Shown here piece after piece: positions 2,160 to 7,806 of a stretch of DNA of 7,806 nt; positions within the stretch are counted from its first letter, which is position 1, and every line of letters starts with the position of its first letter. The translations under genes were made by a program, and so were the position numbers. Origin of the DNA: Okeania sp. (GTDB lineage Bacteria > Cyanobacteriota > Cyanobacteriia > Cyanobacteriales > Microcoleaceae); assembly GCF_035285525.1 (NCBI RefSeq), contig NZ_JAYKGW010000049.1, forward strand, positions 1 to 7,806, given 5' to 3'. The notes under the pieces are model-generated. The model made no database searches. It saw only the letters and a program-made list of their open reading frames with translations, and had not been told where the DNA came from.

Positions 2160-2211
2160 GGATAAAAATGAGGAATGATTCAATAGTTGAAATAAAGTAA
2201 GATTAAACTTA

Positions 2212-2241
2212 TTCCTTTTTCCTTTTTCCCTCTTCCTTCTC
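2212..2241 (+). other. 30-nt uninterrupted polypyrimidine tract upstream of pntAB
   Basis: ttcctttttcctttttccctcttccttctc contains no purine from 2212 to 2241. It lies 24 nt before the pntAB ATG, which has no recognisable SD. Confidence 0.8.
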
Positions 2242-2265
2242 AAAACAATTAACTCTGAAAAAACT

Positions 2266-2556
2266 ATGAGTGATACATTAATCGCAGCTTTATTTGTATT
2301 TGTTCTGGCATCATTTGCCGGATTTGAAGTTATTAACAAAGTGCCACCAACTCTGCACACACCCCTGATGTCTGGAGCAAACGCCATTTCAGGAATTGCA
2401 GTTTTGGGCGCACTAATCATCGCTGGTGACAAAGATTGGAATGTCACTGTAATTTTAGGTTTGATTGCTGTCGTTTTTGCTACTATTAATGTCGTTGGTG
2501 GCTTTTTAGTAACAGACAGAATGTTGCAAATGTTCAAGAAAAAGGAGACTGCATAA
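2266..2556 (+). CDS. pntAB: NAD(P) transhydrogenase alpha subunit part 2 (small membrane piece of dII; PntAB)
   Basis: A 96-aa hydrophobic protein with about three TM helices. It carries the conserved core FEVINKVPPTLHTPLMSGANAISGI typical of the split alpha C-terminal subunit, and it sits between pntAA and pntB. Confidence 0.93.
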   Translation: MSDTLIAALFVFVLASFAGFEVINKVPPTLHTPLMSGANAISGIAVLGALIIAGDKDWNVTVILGLIAVVFATINVVGGFLVTDRMLQMFKKKETA

Positions 2557-3962
2557 TGACAGACTTTATACCAACCGGAATCCAGTTAAGCTACTTAGTA
2601 GCGGTATCTTTATTTTTCCTGGGACTGAAAAAGTTGGGTTCTCCAGCTACAGCCCGGAATGGTAATTTGTTAGCATCAGTAGGGATGTTTATTGCTATTG
2701 TGGCAACTCTACTCGAAAAAGAAGTTTTGAACTATGAAATGATTCTCATTGGAATCGTCATTGGTTCAATTATTGGAGCGATCGCTGCCTACAAAGTTGA
2801 AATGACTTCCATGCCTCAAATGGTTGGTTTATTCAACGGTTTGGGTGGCGCTGCTTCGGCAATGGTGGCAGTAGGAGAATTTTGGCGGTTTCTAGCTATT
2901 GCTGAGTCACCCCCATTACCTACAACTATTACCGCATTATTAGGTGTCTTAATAGGTGGCGTAACTTTTACAGGTTCTTTAGTTGCTTTTGCTAAACTAC
3001 AAGGAATTATCAGTGGTTCACCTATCACTTTCCCATTACAGCAACCTGTTAATGCTCTCTTATTTGGTGGGTTTATTGCTGCCAGCGTTTATTTGTGTGT
3101 CACACCATTTAATTTACCAGTGTTTTTAGCACTAATAGGTGTGTCTCTAGTATTTGGGATCATGTTTGTGATCCCCATTGGTGGCGGTGATATGCCAGTG
3201 GTGATTTCTTTGTTGAACTCATTTTCTGGATTAGCTGCTAGTGCTGCTGGTTTTGTAGTGATGAACAATCTCTTAATCATCGCAGGTGCATTGGTTGGTG
3301 CTTCTGGTATTATCCTCACAGTTATTATGTGTAAAGGTATGAACCGTTCCTTAACTAATGTACTATTTGCTGCATTTGGTACTGGTGATGGTGGCGGTGC
3401 TGTTGCTGGTGCAGGTAGCAAAACTGATAAGGCAGTTCGTAGTATTGACTCAGAAGAAGGGGCAATGATGTTGGGTTATGCTCGGTCTGTGGTCATTGTA
3501 CCTGGTTATGGTATGGCCGTTGCCCAAGCTCAACATTCTGTCCGAGAGTTAGCGGACCAATTAGAAGGATTGGGCGTTGAGGTTAAATATGCAATTCACC
3601 CAGTTGCTGGCCGGATGCCTGGACACATGAACGTATTATTAGCCGAAGCCAATGTCCCTTATCCTCAGTTATACGATATGGATGACATTAATCCTCAGTT
3701 TGACCAAACAGATGTGGCCTTAGTAATTGGGGCTAATGATGTAGTGAATCCAGCAGCTCGTGCAGACCAGAATAGTCCAATTTATGGAATGCCCATTCTG
3801 GAGGTTGATAAAGCAAAGCATACTATTGTGATTAAGCGCAGTCTCAGCACTGGTTTTGCTGGCGTGGACAATGATTTGTTCTATAAGGATAAGACCATGA
3901 TGCTGTTTGGCAGTGCTAAGGATATGGTTGCTAAGTTGGTTTCCGAAGTTAAGCAACTCTAA
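2556..3962 (+). CDS. pntB: NAD(P) transhydrogenase beta subunit (dII membrane domain + dIII NADP(H)-binding domain; PntB)
   Basis: A 468-aa ORF. The N-terminal part is multi-TM (LGSPATARNGN motif). The C-terminal soluble dIII part carries VPGYGMAVAQAQ, IHPVAGRMPGHMNVLLAEA and GANDVVNP. Its ATG overlaps the pntAB stop (TAATG at 2554-2558), and AAGGAG lies at 2541-2546. Confidence 0.97.
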   Translation: MTDFIPTGIQLSYLVAVSLFFLGLKKLGSPATARNGNLLASVGMFIAIVATLLEKEVLNYEMILIGIVIGSIIGAIAAYKVEMTSMPQMVGLFNGLGGAASAMVAVGEFWRFLAIAESPPLPTTITALLGVLIGGVTFTGSLVAFAKLQGIISGSPITFPLQQPVNALLFGGFIAASVYLCVTPFNLPVFLALIGVSLVFGIMFVIPIGGGDMPVVISLLNSFSGLAASAAGFVVMNNLLIIAGALVGASGIILTVIMCKGMNRSLTNVLFAAFGTGDGGGAVAGAGSKTDKAVRSIDSEEGAMMLGYARSVVIVPGYGMAVAQAQHSVRELADQLEGLGVEVKYAIHPVAGRMPGHMNVLLAEANVPYPQLYDMDDINPQFDQTDVALVIGANDVVNPAARADQNSPIYGMPILEVDKAKHTIVIKRSLSTGFAGVDNDLFYKDKTMMLFGSAKDMVAKLVSEVKQL

Positions 3963-4001
3963 AGCTTAAATGTAGCTTAAATGTAGCTTAAATGTAGCTT
4001 A
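3963..4001. repeat. 11-bp tandem repeat AGCTTAAATGT x3.5
   Basis: Three perfect copies plus a partial one start 1 nt after the pntB stop codon. Confidence 0.85.
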
Positions 4002-4258
4002 GATTACTTAAATTTCAGTTTTTTGAGGTGGTTAACCCTGAGCAATGTTCACTGGTTAATAGTTCTGCAAGTTTGGTGGAACAAACCATTGTTCATTGTT
4101 TAGGGATTATTATTTATATGATGCTTACTATTAATCATTTCTTATAGGAATTAGGGAAAATGTCCTTGGTCATGTTGTAATTTTATATCTTATTAAGAAT
4201 AGACATCTCCAAAAATAAAAAGTAAAATCAATTATTATCCATAAATTATCAATTCTTC

Positions 4259-4291
4259 TTCCCAGTTAAGTGTTCCCAGTTAAGTGTTCCC
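4259..4291. repeat. 14-bp tandem repeat TTCCCAGTTAAGTG x2.4
   Basis: Two perfect copies (4259-4272, 4273-4286) plus TTCCC. Confidence 0.8.
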
Positions 4292-4478
4292 TCTTTTCTA
4301 GAGATATCTAATAGTATTTTTATAAAAGTGTTTGTATATTCACAGTATATTGTGTTAGTATGTAAGCGATAATGAGAATAAGTTCGGTTGCAATGTTTGT
4401 TTATATTGAGGGTCAATTTCCTGTCGTTATTGGCAAGCTTCTCTCCGAAGTCTAAATCTCTACATATCTCTAAAATTT

Positions 4479-4484
4479 GGGAGA
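4479..4484 (+). promoter_or_regulatory. Shine-Dalgarno-like GGGAGA for the RNA-binding protein gene
   Basis: GGGAGA lies 6 nt upstream of the ATG at 4491. Confidence 0.55.
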
Positions 4485-4490
4485 AAATCT

Positions 4491-4790
4491 ATGTCAATTT
4501 ATGTAGGTAACTTATCCTACGAGGTCACACAAGATGACCTAAGTGAAGTTTTTAAGGAGTATGGTACTGTCAAGCGGGTTCAGTTACCAACTGACCGTGA
4601 AACAGGTCGTCCCCGGGGCTTTGGCTTTGTCGAAATGAGTACAGAGGAAGAAGAAACTGCTGCTATTGATGCGCTTGATGGTGCTGAGTGGATGGGTCGT
4701 GATATCAGAGTTAATAAGGCAAAGCCCCGTGAAGATAGAAAATCTGGTGGAGGTTACAATCGCAGAGGCGGTGGTGGTGGTCGCTACTAA
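4491..4790 (+). CDS. RRM-type RNA-binding protein with a glycine-rich C-terminus (cyanobacterial Rbp, class with Gly-rich tail)
   Basis: A 99-aa ORF with RNP2 IYVGNL near the N-terminus, RNP1 RGFGFVEM, and a C-terminal tail SGGGYNRRGGGGGRY. This is the same architecture as the Anabaena rbpA-type cold-regulated proteins. I cannot tell which paralogue it is. Confidence 0.95.
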   Translation: MSIYVGNLSYEVTQDDLSEVFKEYGTVKRVQLPTDRETGRPRGFGFVEMSTEEEETAAIDALDGAEWMGRDIRVNKAKPREDRKSGGGYNRRGGGGGRY

Positions 4791-4844
4791 ATCATAGAAA
4801 GCTAATTATTAGGTTAAATTAATTCCTATAGTTGTTTAGTTTTG

Positions 4845-4907
4845 TAGAAGCAGGTTTGGATAAATGATTTGGTTTTCACCAAAATTTCTGACTCAAACCT
4901 GCTTCTA
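4845..4907 (+). terminator. Nested stem-loop downstream of the rbp gene (possible terminator or stability element)
   Basis: The outer stem is a 14-bp perfect pairing, TAGAAGCAGGTTTG (4845-4858) with CAAACCTGCTTCTA (4894-4907). The inner hairpin is TTTGGT-TTTC-ACCAAA (4868-4883). The T5 run (4914-4918) lies 6 nt beyond the stem, so it is not a textbook intrinsic terminator. Confidence 0.4.
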
Positions 4908-4932
4908 TGTCAATTTTTCAGTAATAACTTTG

Positions 4933-4958
4933 TAGGGACGTTCTATCCAACGTCCCTA
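4933..4958. repeat. GTAGGGACG...CGTCCCTA hairpin repeat, copy 1
   Basis: TAGGGACGTT (4933-4942) pairs with AACGTCCCTA (4949-4958) around a 6-nt loop. The same stem sequence recurs in inverted orientation at 5972-5998. Confidence 0.7.
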
Positions 4959-5119
4959 ATTTAATGACTCGTTTTCTTTTCTCTGATTTCTTTCCGTAGA
5001 TACGATAAATATTTATAGTAATGAGCGCTGGTATATTTAGGGCTTGTTCAAAAAGTATGAAAATAGTTGATTTTTTATTCAAATAAATCTGATAATAATT
5101 TTTTATTATTATAATCTGT

Positions 5120-5633
5120 TCAACCATAAGTTGAAATGATTAAACAGACTACAAAAATAGCTTTTTCTCCAAAAAAGTATAAAAAGAGAGAAAAAGCCTC
5201 TTTCAAGAGGGTAGAAAGATTGATTACCAAGAAAGCAATTGCGATCGCGGTCATGGAAGTTTTAGAAAGTTTTGCCATCACTTTCTCCAAACTAAATCCT
5301 CTTTTTGCTTGTCCGAATTTGCCCTGAATATGATTCCGTAATCTTTCATCTAATTGAGCTTGTTTCTTTTGTTCCTGATCAATATTTTTTGGTGGTCTTT
5401 CCAAAGGAGGGCTGCTGATTCTAATACCTTTCTCTTTACAGAATTGTCGGTTATTCTCTTGTTCTGTAAATTTGGTCTGCATGAACTGATTCTGGGTAAT
5501 AACCTGTTGAATTTTTCAACTCTTCTACTTGAGCCTTTAAATCTCCTGATTCATTATAGTTATCCCAACTTATTCGGTGTAAAAATACATATCCATCAAT
5601 ACAACTTGCAGGGAGATTGAAGTGTCGATAAAA
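5120..5633 (-). pseudogene. IS5/IS1182-like DDE transposase, C-terminal remnant (5'-truncated and frameshifted)
   Basis: Two minus-strand frames join into one transposase C-terminus. Frame A (5633..5454) reads FNLPASCIDGYVFLHRISWDNYNESGDLKAQVEELKNSTGYYPESVHADQIYRTRE and ends at a TAA (5453..5451). The ORF-track frame (5482..5120) continues ENNRQFCKEKGIRISSPPLERPPKN...RNHIQGKFGQAKRGFSLEKVMAKL...AIAIAFLVINLSTLL. There is no N-terminal two-thirds. In-frame stops lie upstream at 5636..5634. Confidence 0.8.
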
Positions 5634-5651
5634 TCATGAACATATACACAT

Positions 5652-5668
5652 GTAACCGGATTTTATAT
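5652..5668. repeat. Dispersed 17-nt repeat GTAACCGGATTTTATAT, copy 2
   Basis: Identical to 503-519. It lies 19 bp beyond the truncated 5' end of the transposase remnant. Confidence 0.7.
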
Positions 5669-5793
5669 AACATAAGTTACGATAAAATTACAGCAGATTC
5701 CGAAGTTATGAAGTTCAGAAATATTAATTATGGCCTGCTGAAAAAGTCTTTTGGTTAAGGTAGGGAGTAGGGAGTAATATGACGTTATAAATA

Positions 5794-5952
5794 AACCCAC
5801 CTCTAACCCCTCCCAGGAGGGGAACTCAGGAGTCAACCCACCCCTAACCCCTCCCAGGAGAGGAAAAGCAGGAGGAAGTTTTTTTATCGCGCTCTGATCC
5901 GGACATGATATAAACCCACCCCTAACCTCTCCCAGGAGGATAAGTTAGGAGG
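5794..5952. repeat. Three copies of an approximately 40-bp repeat (core AACCCACCYCTAACCYCTCCCAGGAG) inside the MITE-like element
   Basis: The copies are at 5794-5832, 5835-5875 and 5913-5952. Copy 1 contains the palindrome CCCCTCC-CA-GGAGGGG (5807-5822). Each copy ends in a second AGGAG(G). Confidence 0.8.
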
Positions 5953-5971
5953 AATGGGAGTTATAGAAGAT

Positions 5972-5998
5972 TAGGGACGCCCTTATGCAACGTCCCTA
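5972..5998. repeat. GTAGGGACG...CGTCCCTA hairpin repeat, copy 2 (inverted relative to copy 1)
   Basis: TAGGGACG (5972-5979) pairs with CGTCCCTA (5991-5998) around an 11-nt loop. The reverse complement reads GTAGGGACGTT...CGTCCCTAA, which gives the same arms as 4932-4959. Confidence 0.7.
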
Positions 5999-6149
5999 CG
6001 ACTCCTGTCTCCTGACTCCTACCCCCACCCATAAGACTTATTCAGCAAGTCTTAATTATAAAGCTTTGTAGTGCGGGTCGGAAAGCCTGCGACTGGTGTA
6101 CCTCATAAAAATGGAAAGTGCTGTAAATAAAAAATTTAAACTAATTATT

Positions 6150-6470
6150 ATGAAGCAAATCGTAGAATTTCCTCTAGAAGATGGTGACTTTATTCTCATA
6201 GAAGTAGATGCACCTCCTCAACCAGTTGATGACCGTATTGGCGTAACAGACGATGTGATTCGGAAGGCTAATAAAAGCTTTGATTCGGCGATGGAAAAAA
6301 TTAAACCTGTGGCTAATACTATTATTGAAAAAGTCAGAAGTATGAATCAACCTGCTGACGAAATAGAAGTAAAATTTGGAATTAAATTAAGTGCTGAAAT
6401 GGGAGCAGTTATTGCTTCTGGAGAAGCAGAAGTTAATTATGAAATCACTCTAAAATGGCATCATAAATAA
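6150..6470 (+). CDS. Small Trypco2-like (trypsin-co-occurring domain 2 / CU044_2847-family-like) protein of unknown function
   Basis: The ORF-track frame opens at GTG 6096, with in-frame ATGs at 6111 and 6150. From 6150 the product begins MKQIVEFPLEDGDFILIEVD and ends EIEVKFGIKLSAEMGAVIASGEAEVNYEITLKW. This matches the pattern I recall for this family: an N-terminal v-F-l-dgg-v-vEv and a C-terminal evefgvkl-ae-GavIa...l-W. There is no TM segment and no signal peptide. Its stop overlaps the ATG of the next gene (TAATG). Confidence 0.8.
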   Translation: MKQIVEFPLEDGDFILIEVDAPPQPVDDRIGVTDDVIRKANKSFDSAMEKIKPVANTIIEKVRSMNQPADEIEVKFGIKLSAEMGAVIASGEAEVNYEITLKWHHK

Positions 6471-7806
6471 TGAGTAAAATGTTTAAATTTGACCGCTCTA
6501 TTGTCAGAATTTATTCTCGGTTAAACCAAGTCAAAGGAGCCGGTTTTTTAGTATCTGAAAATCAAGTTTTGACTGCCGCCCATGTGGTATCTTTGGCATT
6601 AAACGTCAATAGTAATACTTTGGAAATACCAACCACAGAAGTTAAGTTAGATTTTCCCCAAGTTGCACCAGGGAAATTTATGACTGCTAAAGTAATTTTT
6701 TGGTTGCCTGTTAATCCAGATAAAGCTTTAGAAGATATTGCTGTTTTGGAATTAACGACTATTCCTGATAATATTTCCCCAGTCCGGTTGATGACTTCTG
6801 AGGAATACTGGGGGCATAATATTCGTGCTTTTGGGTTTATCAGGGGTAAGGAATATGGTGTGTGGGCTAATGGGGTTTTACGGGATAGTAATGCTAAAGG
6901 TTGGGTACAACTAGAAGATACTGACCACAGTGGTTATGTTTTGGAGGAAGGTTTTAGTGGTACTCCTGTTTGGGATGAATTTTTAGAGGGTGTGGTGGGA
7001 ATGGCTGTTGCTGCCGAAAAACAACGACTGGATGCTAGGGTAGCGTTTATTATTCCGACTAATTTATTGATGGCAGCATGGCCTCAGTTACAGGAGCGGT
7101 TAATTGCTAGTTGTCCCTATAAGGGTTTGTTTGCTTTCCAGGAGGGTGATGCTGCATACTTTTTTGGGCGGGAGGTGTTCACTGAGCAGCTTGTGGCGGC
7201 AGTGGCACAACAACAATTTGTGGCGGTCATTGGGCCTTCTGGTAGTGGTAAGTCTTCGGTGGTATTTGCGGGGTTGGTTTCTCGGTTGCGTTCTCAAGGG
7301 AATTGGCAAATTGAAAAGTTTCGCCCGAAAGCTTATCCTTTTGATGAGTTAGCCCGTGCTTTGATTCGTTTGAAACAACCGGAAAAGGAGGAAACTGGAC
7401 AAGATATTGATGCTTTGCAACTTTCTAGCATTTTGGAATCAAAGGAGTCAACCCTATCAACTTGGTTATCGTCTATTTTAGAGAAACACCGAGGTAGTCG
7501 TTTGTTGTTGGTGATAGACCAATTTGAAGAAATTTATACTCTTTGTTCTGAGCAGGAAAAGTGTCTATTGTTTTTGGAAAGGTTGTTTAATGCAGTGGTT
7601 AATATTCCGGACTTGAGTTTGGTTATTACTCTGCGGGCTGATTTTTTGGAGTATGCTTTGTCTGACCGTTTGTTGGCGGATGCTTTGCAGGGTCTCTCCC
7701 CCAGCCCCCCTTTGAAAGGTTGGGAGAATATCTCCCCCAGCCCCCCTTTGAAAGGTTGGGAGAATATCTCCCCCAGCCCCCCTTTGAAAGGTTGGGAGAA
7801 TATCTC
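6470..7806 (+). CDS. Trypsin-like serine protease fused to a STAND-type P-loop NTPase (partial; continues beyond the right edge)
   Basis: I translated this by hand from ATG 6470 (alternative ATG 6479). It is open for 445 codons to the window end, with no stop. The protease triad motifs are LTAAHV (His codon 6581-6583), DIAVLEL (Asp 6734-6736) and GFSGTPV (Ser 6956-6958). The NTPase motifs are the lead-in PYKGLFAFQEGDAAYFFGRE, Walker A GPSGSGKSS (7232-7258), Walker B LLLVIDQFEE (7502-7531) and ITLRADF. It is missing from the ORF track only because it is open-ended. Confidence 0.9.
   Translation, partial: MSKMFKFDRSIVRIYSRLNQVKGAGFLVSENQVLTAAHVVSLALNVNSNTLEIPTTEVKLDFPQVAPGKFMTAKVIFWLPVNPDKALEDIAVLELTTIPDNISPVRLMTSEEYWGHNIRAFGFIRGKEYGVWANGVLRDSNAKGWVQLEDTDHSGYVLEEGFSGTPVWDEFLEGVVGMAVAAEKQRLDARVAFIIPTNLLMAAWPQLQERLIASCPYKGLFAFQEGDAAYFFGREVFTEQLVAAVAQQQFVAVIGPSGSGKSSVVFAGLVSRLRSQGNWQIEKFRPKAYPFDELARALIRLKQPEKEETGQDIDALQLSSILESKESTLSTWLSSILEKHRGSRLLLVIDQFEEIYTLCSEQEKCLLFLERLFNAVVNIPDLSLVITLRADFLEYALSDRLLADALQGLSPSPPLKGWENISPSPPLKGWENISPSPPLKGWENI
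7695..7806 (+). repeat. Perfect 36-bp tandem repeat (at least 3.1 copies, runs off the window), in frame inside the NTPase ORF
   Basis: The unit is TCTCCCCCAGCCCCCCTTTGAAAGGTTGGGAGAATA, at 7695-7730, 7731-7766 and 7767-7802, followed by TCTC. All copies are identical. The unit is 12 codons (ISPSPPLKGWEN) and is itself an imperfect palindrome (TCTCCC...GGGAGA, CCTTT-G-AAAGG). Confidence 0.95.

Follow-up and report, generated by a model that had tools for sequence, protein, structure and literature searches.

A recent, perfect 36-bp minisatellite in the nSTAND1 domain of a Trypco1-linked protease–STAND gene of Okeania sp., a candidate for a small palindromic insert amplified in place

The DNA analysed here, referred to as the window, is a stretch of 7,806 nt from the cyanobacterium Okeania sp., which makes up the whole of contig NZ_JAYKGW010000049.1. 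At its right-hand end, a gene coding for a trypsin-like protease joined to an nSTAND1 NTPase (partial protein P0001) leads directly into a perfect tandem array of a 36-nt unit, and this array continues up to the last base of the contig. The features on which the following analysis is built are these:

7695..7806, + strand: perfect tandem array of the 36-nt unit TCTCCCCCAGCCCCCCTTTGAAAGGTTGGGAGAATA, 3.11 copies, reaching the last base of the contig and read in frame as (ISPSPPLKGWEN)n
7684..7697, + strand: left junction between the native gene and the array, ...TTGCAGGGTC/TCTCC..., with the same junction in an independent k=31 assembly
6470..7694, + strand: intact 5' part of the trypsin-like protease–nSTAND1 NTPase gene, 408 codons, ending ...ADALQG, assigned by Pfam and alignment
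6111..6470, + strand: Trypco1 (CU044_2847 family) gene, assigned by Pfam Trypco1 (97.4 bits) and NCBIfam CU044_2847_fam (81.5 bits), and likewise called on the k=31 Logan contig L006

The host gene was analysed as the open reading frame (ORF) starting at position 6470, which matched the Pfam domain nSTAND1 (PF20703) with 169.5 bits against a cutoff of 27.1 and the domain Trypsin_2 with 51.1 bits. The nSTAND1 match covers only profile positions 1–178 of 379 and stops at the array. An alignment of the window protein with ten homologues showed that the protease triad, the Walker A (GPSGSGKSS) and Walker B (DQFEE) motifs and the sensor-1 motif (TLRADF) are all conserved, the NTPase motifs occupying invariant columns. 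The ORF therefore combines a score above the gathering threshold of nSTAND1 with Walker A, Walker B and sensor 1 of an NTPase, and because every catalytic motif is conserved, the gene looks functional right up to the junction, as far as can be judged from its sequence. The stop codon of the Trypco1 gene overlaps the ATG of the protease-NTPase gene (ATGA), which marks Trypco1 as its operon partner. A comparison with PADLOC and NCBIfam models yielded only weak similarity at the level of the protease, namely to the Avs1b, LmuA and RT-protease models.

Analysis of the array by Tandem Repeats Finder (TRF) gave a period of 36 nt over positions 7695–7806 with 3.1 copies, 100% matches and 0 indels. 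The period-36 run is 112 nt long and begins exactly at position 7695, and the 36-mer TCTCCCCCAGCCCCCCTTTGAAAGGTTGGGAGAATA occurs three times as an exact copy in the window, always within the array. No further copy was detected in the rest of the window when up to three mismatches were allowed, and none of 200 shuffles contained a match. The array starts with the second base of codon 409, leaving G408 as the last native residue, and the ORF reads through it without a stop codon as ...RLLADALQG-LSPSPPLKGWEN-ISPSPPLKGWEN-ISPSPPLKGWEN-I(S). Because five of the six frames of the unit are open, an open frame in the array is to be expected and is uninformative as to selection. The head-to-tail arrangement of a unit within the range of 10–100 nt, inside a coding gene and in frame with it, identifies the array as an intragenic tandem repeat. 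A sequence-only reading of the window had already described a perfect 36-bp tandem repeat with at least 3.1 copies, located about 55 codons after Walker B and in frame without a stop. The repeat and its location were confirmed, the Walker B aspartate being residue 350, and the continuous frame was confirmed as well but carries little weight, given the number of open frames in the unit.

The same reading had regarded the GC-rich unit as foreign to the gene, and our data agree. The unit has a GC content of 0.556 compared with 0.417 for the ORF and 0.387 for the window, and its GC content at third codon positions (GC3), read in frame, is 0.67 compared with 0.35 for the host gene. Five of its 12 codons are rare among the 408 upstream codons, namely TCC, AGC, ATC and CCC, the last of which is used twice in the unit: TCC and AGC each represent 1 of the 29 upstream serine codons, ATC 1 of the 22 isoleucine codons and CCC 2 of the 16 proline codons. 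The unit is, therefore, compositionally foreign to its host gene. All copies of the array are identical at every position, synonymous positions included, which indicates that the expansion was recent, as had been proposed.

To judge the copy number, the window was compared with the contigs of run SRR19514071 in the Logan collection, which were assembled with k=31 and are identical to the window at positions 2193–4227, 4270–5855 and 5976–7724. The last of these contigs (L006) crosses the junction and ends exactly 30 nt (k−1) into the array. Contigs of a de Bruijn graph break in this manner where the next k-mer has two predecessors. The 112 nt of repeat in the window equal 77+36−1, which is what a single passage round a period-36 loop yields at k=77, a value deduced for the window assembly from the repeat length itself. 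Because k determines where in the array each of the two assemblies breaks, the number of 3.1 copies is an assembler-set lower bound, and because 112 nt of pure repeat need 77-mers lying wholly within the repeat, the array is longer than 112 nt. The gene–repeat junction and the tandem structure are real in the reads. Attempts to extend the sequence by exact-protein look-ups with PntB, the RRM protein and three start variants of Trypco1 returned only short Logan contigs of SRR19514071. The right-hand flank of the array was found neither in Logan contigs nor by homologue searches, and the partial protein of the window is not on record. Using the repeat peptides joined to the C-terminal half of the closest full homologue as queries for the 3' half of the gene, we obtained 53 matches, none of which contained a repeat peptide or the right start, and the best Logan candidate (P0142) belongs to a different run.

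Nine of the ten aligned homologues span the insertion site, the tenth (P0003) being a fragment that ends before it. All nine proceed from ...ADALQx directly into xD-VKLGPMNRxELxxAIExPA... without a Pro-rich segment. By this alignment, the array is an insertion relative to the protein family, which upholds the earlier view that it was inserted and is not an evolved protein repeat. Its structural context was taken from a predicted fold of P0002, the closest full-length homologue (58% identical), which was modelled from a 19-sequence alignment with a mean pLDDT (predicted local distance difference test) of 84.6. In this model, the equivalents of ALQ-G are located at the end of helix 399–405, the helix following sensor 1, and in the 3-residue coil before strand 409–411, which comprises the VKL of KLGPMN and represents β5. 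The insert is thus predicted to fall in a loop, a point that the sequence-only reading had proposed to check. Core strands of P-loop folds generally have their N-terminal ends at the face of the sheet that is remote from the nucleotide site, and the loop emerging at the N-terminal end of β5 would accordingly be placed on that side. An insertion into it would be of a kind that can be tolerated.

Some of the other family members are incomplete themselves. The closest homologue (82% identity, with Trypco1 upstream; L002 5355–8449, also present on L003 and L004) ends with residue 274, shortly behind Walker A. Two unrelated ORFs of 320 and 402 aa without any Pfam match come next, so that the NTPase has been truncated or replaced in that lineage. 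Among entries P0122–P0174, many cyanobacterial nSTAND1 proteins are short ORFs that start inside the domain, e.g., with MNREEL or MPLLEF, which suggests that nSTAND1 genes, or their assemblies, are often fragmented around this region.

Relatives of the unit were searched for with a looser pattern in which the arms were fixed and the loop was left free (TCTCCCCCAGCC N5-25 GGTTGGGAGA), resulting in four matches in genomes and four in metagenomes. Four of the matches (L010, L011, L012 and L017) clearly represent one kind of small GC-rich hairpin, cccTCTCCCCCAGCCCCTCTCCC(AA)GGTTGGGAGAgggg, and these hairpins originate from metagenome-assembled genomes (MAGs) of Pseudanabaenaceae and Anaerolineales and from one metagenome. 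Related but non-identical elements are also present in frame in other nSTAND1 genes. In the nSTAND1 fragment P0170, LWDKQS and LTHQAY are separated by a GC-rich insert of about 50 residues (~150 bp), which is in frame and lies at another position than the array. The DNA of this insert (L007, ~4150–4300) resembles a miniature inverted-repeat transposable element (MITE), with two internal hairpins and inverted-repeat-like ends, and its left end aligns with the unit-to-unit junction of the window over 24 of 29 nt, yielding a score of 33 compared with a maximum of 24 in 200 shuffled units. The second case is the Anaerolineales protein P0093, which contains a 14-aa insert, PWQGEGRGEGGNAG, just before Walker A at residues ~243–256. 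From these resemblances, the unit seems to be related to the small palindromic elements of high GC content that are common in these genomes, without being demonstrably a member of any one family.

The unit had furthermore been described as a hairpin with the outer arms TCTCCC/GGGAGA and the inner arms CCTTT/AAAGG. Both pairs of arms are present, and the dyad symmetry of the unit is real but modest. The best-formed stem in the array, GGGAGA-ATA-TCTCCC, extends across the junction between units, and the longer arms TCTCCC(CC)AGCC and GGTTGGGAGA are complementary at 10 of 12 positions with a 2-nt bulge, their fold as DNA being no better than those of shuffles. Folded as RNA, the unit gave z-scores of −2.0 to −2.5. 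While the arms were thus verified, a stability above that of shuffled sequences was not.

Several of our results weigh against a palindromic insert that was amplified in place. A 26-nt core of the unit had no exact match in 185,579 species-representative genomes and none in the metagenome contigs of the Joint Genome Institute (JGI), a 22-nt core was absent from viral contigs, and a blastn search with the unit against plasmids gave 0 matches. The further copies for which the sequence-only reading had proposed to look were therefore found neither in these collections, as far as the core is concerned, nor elsewhere in the window, the source genome itself lying outside the search. Because there is no second copy of the unit in the collections searched, a mobile origin draws only on the partial similarity to other elements. 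The four matches per collection obtained with the looser pattern are close to the ~1–2 expected by chance in each, and P0170 was picked up via a shared peptide word and is, therefore, a selected example. A single unit folded as DNA reached −3.8 to −5.8 kcal/mol with z-scores of −0.1 to −1.85 relative to shuffles (−0.4 for the unit itself and −1.85 in the rotated register), and the whole end region folded with a z-score of −1.9. Finally, as only the left-hand junction was observed, the array may mark the border of a larger insertion, and the gene may no longer be functional.

Searches at the peptide and RNA level were also carried out. A peptide search with the five open frames of the unit returned nothing, and the window's own protein was not returned either, probably because of the bias and repeat correction of HMMER. 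The other open frame of the plus strand at positions 7690–7806 (LPQPPFERLGEY) matched only unrelated low-complexity 12-residue repeats in the representative library. The best of these matches (E 1.8e-10, 41% identity) concerns a frame that is not that of the ORF, and the result only shows that no library protein reads LPQPPFERLGEY repeats. Analysis of positions 5400–7806 with Rfam at E values up to 10 gave chance-level matches only, and the single Pfam match to the array was a sub-threshold one to the proline-rich FH1 region (21 bits vs. a cutoff of 40).

The Rickettsia palindromic elements (RPEs) and their counterparts in Wolbachia and Methanocaldococcus consist of palindromic DNA that has entered functional, mutually unrelated genes in frame, typically in unstructured segments of globular proteins, and that is open on both strands (PMC10969869, PMC2996958). 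The array resembles the RPEs in being an in-frame insert that is absent from homologues at the site and is located in a coil of the host protein according to the P0002 model, as well as in the openness of its frames (5/6). It differs from them in size and distribution, since RPEs are ~100–150 bp long, are scattered singly over many genes of a genome and code for a conserved peptide, whereas the unit described here has 36 bp, is tandemly amplified and has no second known locus. Tandem in-frame coding repeats with dyad symmetry at the DNA level and variable copy numbers are represented by the palindromic amphipathic repeat coding elements (PARCELs; PMC2996958). The array shares the tandem arrangement, the in-frame coding and the dyad symmetry with these elements, but PARCELs consist of 75-nt (25-aa) units with diverged copies and a conserved amphipathic motif (DUF285/TIGR02167) in surface proteins or proteins without known function, while the units of the array have 36 nt, are identical and Pro-rich and lie inside an enzyme core.

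The unit had also been likened to repetitive extragenic palindromic (REP) sequences, which occur in bacterial interspersed mosaic elements (BIMEs) and REP doublets forming hairpins (REPINs) and are mobilised by REP-associated tyrosine transposases (RAYTs). It is indeed similar to them in size (20–40 bp for REPs), is an imperfect palindrome and occurs in a cluster, as REPs can. REPs are extragenic, present at high copy numbers, clustered in alternating orientation instead of as perfect direct tandems, and provided with a GTAG or CGTC tag at one end (PMC3733652). In the window and the collections searched, these hallmarks were not seen for our unit, and neither GTAG nor CGTC is present in TCTCCCCCAGCCCCCCTTTGAAAGGTTGGGAGAATA on either strand. 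The window has a single transposase remnant, which is of the DDE_Tnp_1_2 type, whereas RAYTs are IS200/IS605-like. Of the proposed small palindromic mobile or REP-like element, we therefore consider the REP-like part unsupported, as the unit has no tag and no dispersed copies of it were found in the window or in the collections searched, and favour a foreign palindromic insert that was subsequently amplified.

Cyanobacterial genomes contain small GC-rich hairpin or MITE-like repeats such as Nezha and other MITEs, and small dispersed repeats of 21–27 nt in Nostoc were reportedly described by Elhai et al. in 2008. The unit has the host group and the sequence style of C-runs, loop and G-runs in common with these repeats, and it contains TCTCCCCCAGCCCC and AAGGTTGGGAGA like the GC-rich hairpins of the Pseudanabaenaceae and Anaerolineales MAGs and the end of the P0170 insert. 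In contrast to the dispersed repeats and MITEs, it is tandem and perfect, the exact unit was not found elsewhere, and it comes with no demonstrable target-site duplication or parent transposase. The window holds a separate element of the same style in three copies (5791–5951), which is described further below. Finally, a 36-nt partly palindromic direct repeat in a cyanobacterium is reminiscent of the repeats of clustered regularly interspaced short palindromic repeat (CRISPR) arrays, which were formerly known in Anabaena as long tandemly repeated repetitive (LTRR) sequences. A CRISPR array was rejected because the units abut without spacers (start-to-start spacing of 36), give no Rfam match and are located within an ORF.

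The reading that we prefer, with a probability of roughly 55%, is that a small palindromic insert was amplified to a recent and perfect 36-bp minisatellite in the nSTAND1 domain of a Trypco1-linked protease-STAND conflict-system gene. A single short GC-rich imperfect palindrome would have been inserted in frame, and it would be one of the small GC-rich hairpin or MITE-like elements that form a loose class in cyanobacterial genomes. The ends of the unit, TCTCCCCCAGCC... and ...GGTTGGGAGA, look like what may be a collapsed pair of terminal inverted repeats. The inserted palindrome would then have multiplied in place, either through slippage during replication or through unequal recombination between the copies; both the insertion and the expansion step are inferred. 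The array would change only the length of a Pro-rich and probably disordered loop. Because a unit of 36 nt keeps the frame at every copy number, slippage alters the length only and provides no on/off control, and the switch by copy-number slippage that had been suggested is reduced to a variation in loop length. Most likely, the array is a neutral to mildly harmful selfish insert rather than an adaptive device. It appears very improbable that the unit represents an undescribed ultra-small self-amplifying element which expands in tandem and in frame in conflict-system STAND NTPases and creates a length-variable loop next to β5 that tunes or disables the sensor. If this were true, it would amount to a heritable and reversible modulation of an immune-type NTPase without frameshifts.

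The main rival to an amplified palindromic insert is that the array forms the border of a larger insertion, for example a composite repeat cluster or the end of a MITE or insertion sequence (IS), which has cut the gene in two and turned it into a pseudogene, the in-frame reading being incidental. We consider this possible, if doubtful. The number of open frames deprives the in-frame reading of any weight against it, the contig ends in the array, and no fragment with the 3' half of the gene was recovered. Moreover, the homologue of 82% identity also breaks off shortly after Walker A, with unrelated ORFs behind it, the neighbourhood is repeat-rich and contains a transposase remnant, and many of the nSTAND1 matches are fragments; that these genes are so often found in pieces fits a larger insertion and a dead gene. 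However, the gene is intact up to the junction with every catalytic motif conserved, the length of the unit as a multiple of three fits a tolerated insert, and a tandem loop alone explains both contig ends. An origin without any mobile element, by which a local stretch from a small indel or from repair synthesis was duplicated and then expanded by slippage, seems unlikely to us. Such an origin would agree with a unit that is unique in every collection searched and has no other copy in the window, and with a likeness to other elements that is partial and partly forced by the search pattern. It would leave unaccounted for that the unit is unlike the family consensus at the site and unlike any other part of the window, where its best local score only equalled the shuffle maximum, that its composition and codon use are foreign, and that its junction aligns with the end of the P0170 in-frame insert better than any of 200 shuffles.

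An assembly artefact, in which the contig end is chimeric or collapsed and the locus has no such array, had been named as a possible objection to the array. It may be suspected from the position of the array exactly at the contig end and from its length of k+period−1 for k=77, but the junction is the same to the base in the independent k=31 assembly, which ends at k−1, and the 77-mers lying wholly inside the repeat require an array of more than 112 nt. We therefore regard an artefact as hardly credible. The least probable of all explanations is an evolved and selected protein repeat or linker of the NTPase, as might be imagined from the in-frame position and from a 12-residue unit whose richness in Pro, Gly and Ser recalls natural linkers. 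Such a segment would have to be reconciled with its absence from all nine homologues spanning the site, with copies that are identical at every synonymous position, with the foreign GC3 and codon use, and with a best Pfam match, to FH1, that reaches only 21 of the 40 bits of the cutoff.

Farther upstream of the Trypco1 operon, the window contains pntA, a gene for a small pntA-type membrane subunit, pntB, a gene for an RRM RNA-binding protein and a remnant of a DDE transposase:

5120-5482, − strand: transposase remnant, ORF of 120 aa with the C-terminal DDE_Tnp_1_2 domain only (82.7 bits)

This IS remnant is located between the RRM gene and the Trypco1 operon and holds one of the three highly iterated palindrome (HIP1) octamers of the window, for which 0.02 were expected. 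Like the identity of the homologues, these octamers point to a cyanobacterium. An 11-nt tandem repeat, AGCTTAAATGT (4.8 copies, 3963–4013), has its first base right at the stop codon of pntB, and a 14-nt repeat, TTCCCAGTTAAGTG (2.4 copies, 4259–4291), precedes the RRM gene; the Logan contigs break between the two (4228–4269). Upstream of Trypco1, the intergenic region contains a GC-rich hairpin element of ~42 nt, ATAAACCCACCCCTAACCCCTCCCAGGAGGGGAAC..., in three copies at positions 5791–5951, which are 74–100% identical. A gap of the k=31 Logan assembly at 5856–5975 suggests that this element is present in multiple copies in the genome. It is flanked on either side by heptamer tandem repeats, GTAGGGA (2.4 copies, 5760–5776) and GACTCCT (3.0 copies, 6000–6020), which resemble the short tandemly repeated repetitive (STRR) heptamers of heterocystous cyanobacteria. 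Aligned locally with the elements at 5791–5951 and with the remainder of the window, the 36-nt unit did not score better than shuffles.

The practical outcome is mainly that the assembler was seen to have set both the contig end and the number of 3.1 copies. The array is a fresh instance of two known phenomena, a palindromic in-frame insert and a coding minisatellite, and it adds to the evidence that cyanobacterial nSTAND1 genes repeatedly acquire small GC-rich inserts and become fragmented. If the gene continues past the array, the locus would represent a clean natural case of a foreign palindrome inserted and amplified in the core of a conflict-system P-loop NTPase. Such a case would be useful for learning how much loop insertion the NTPase switches tolerate and how selfish repeats seed protein segments.

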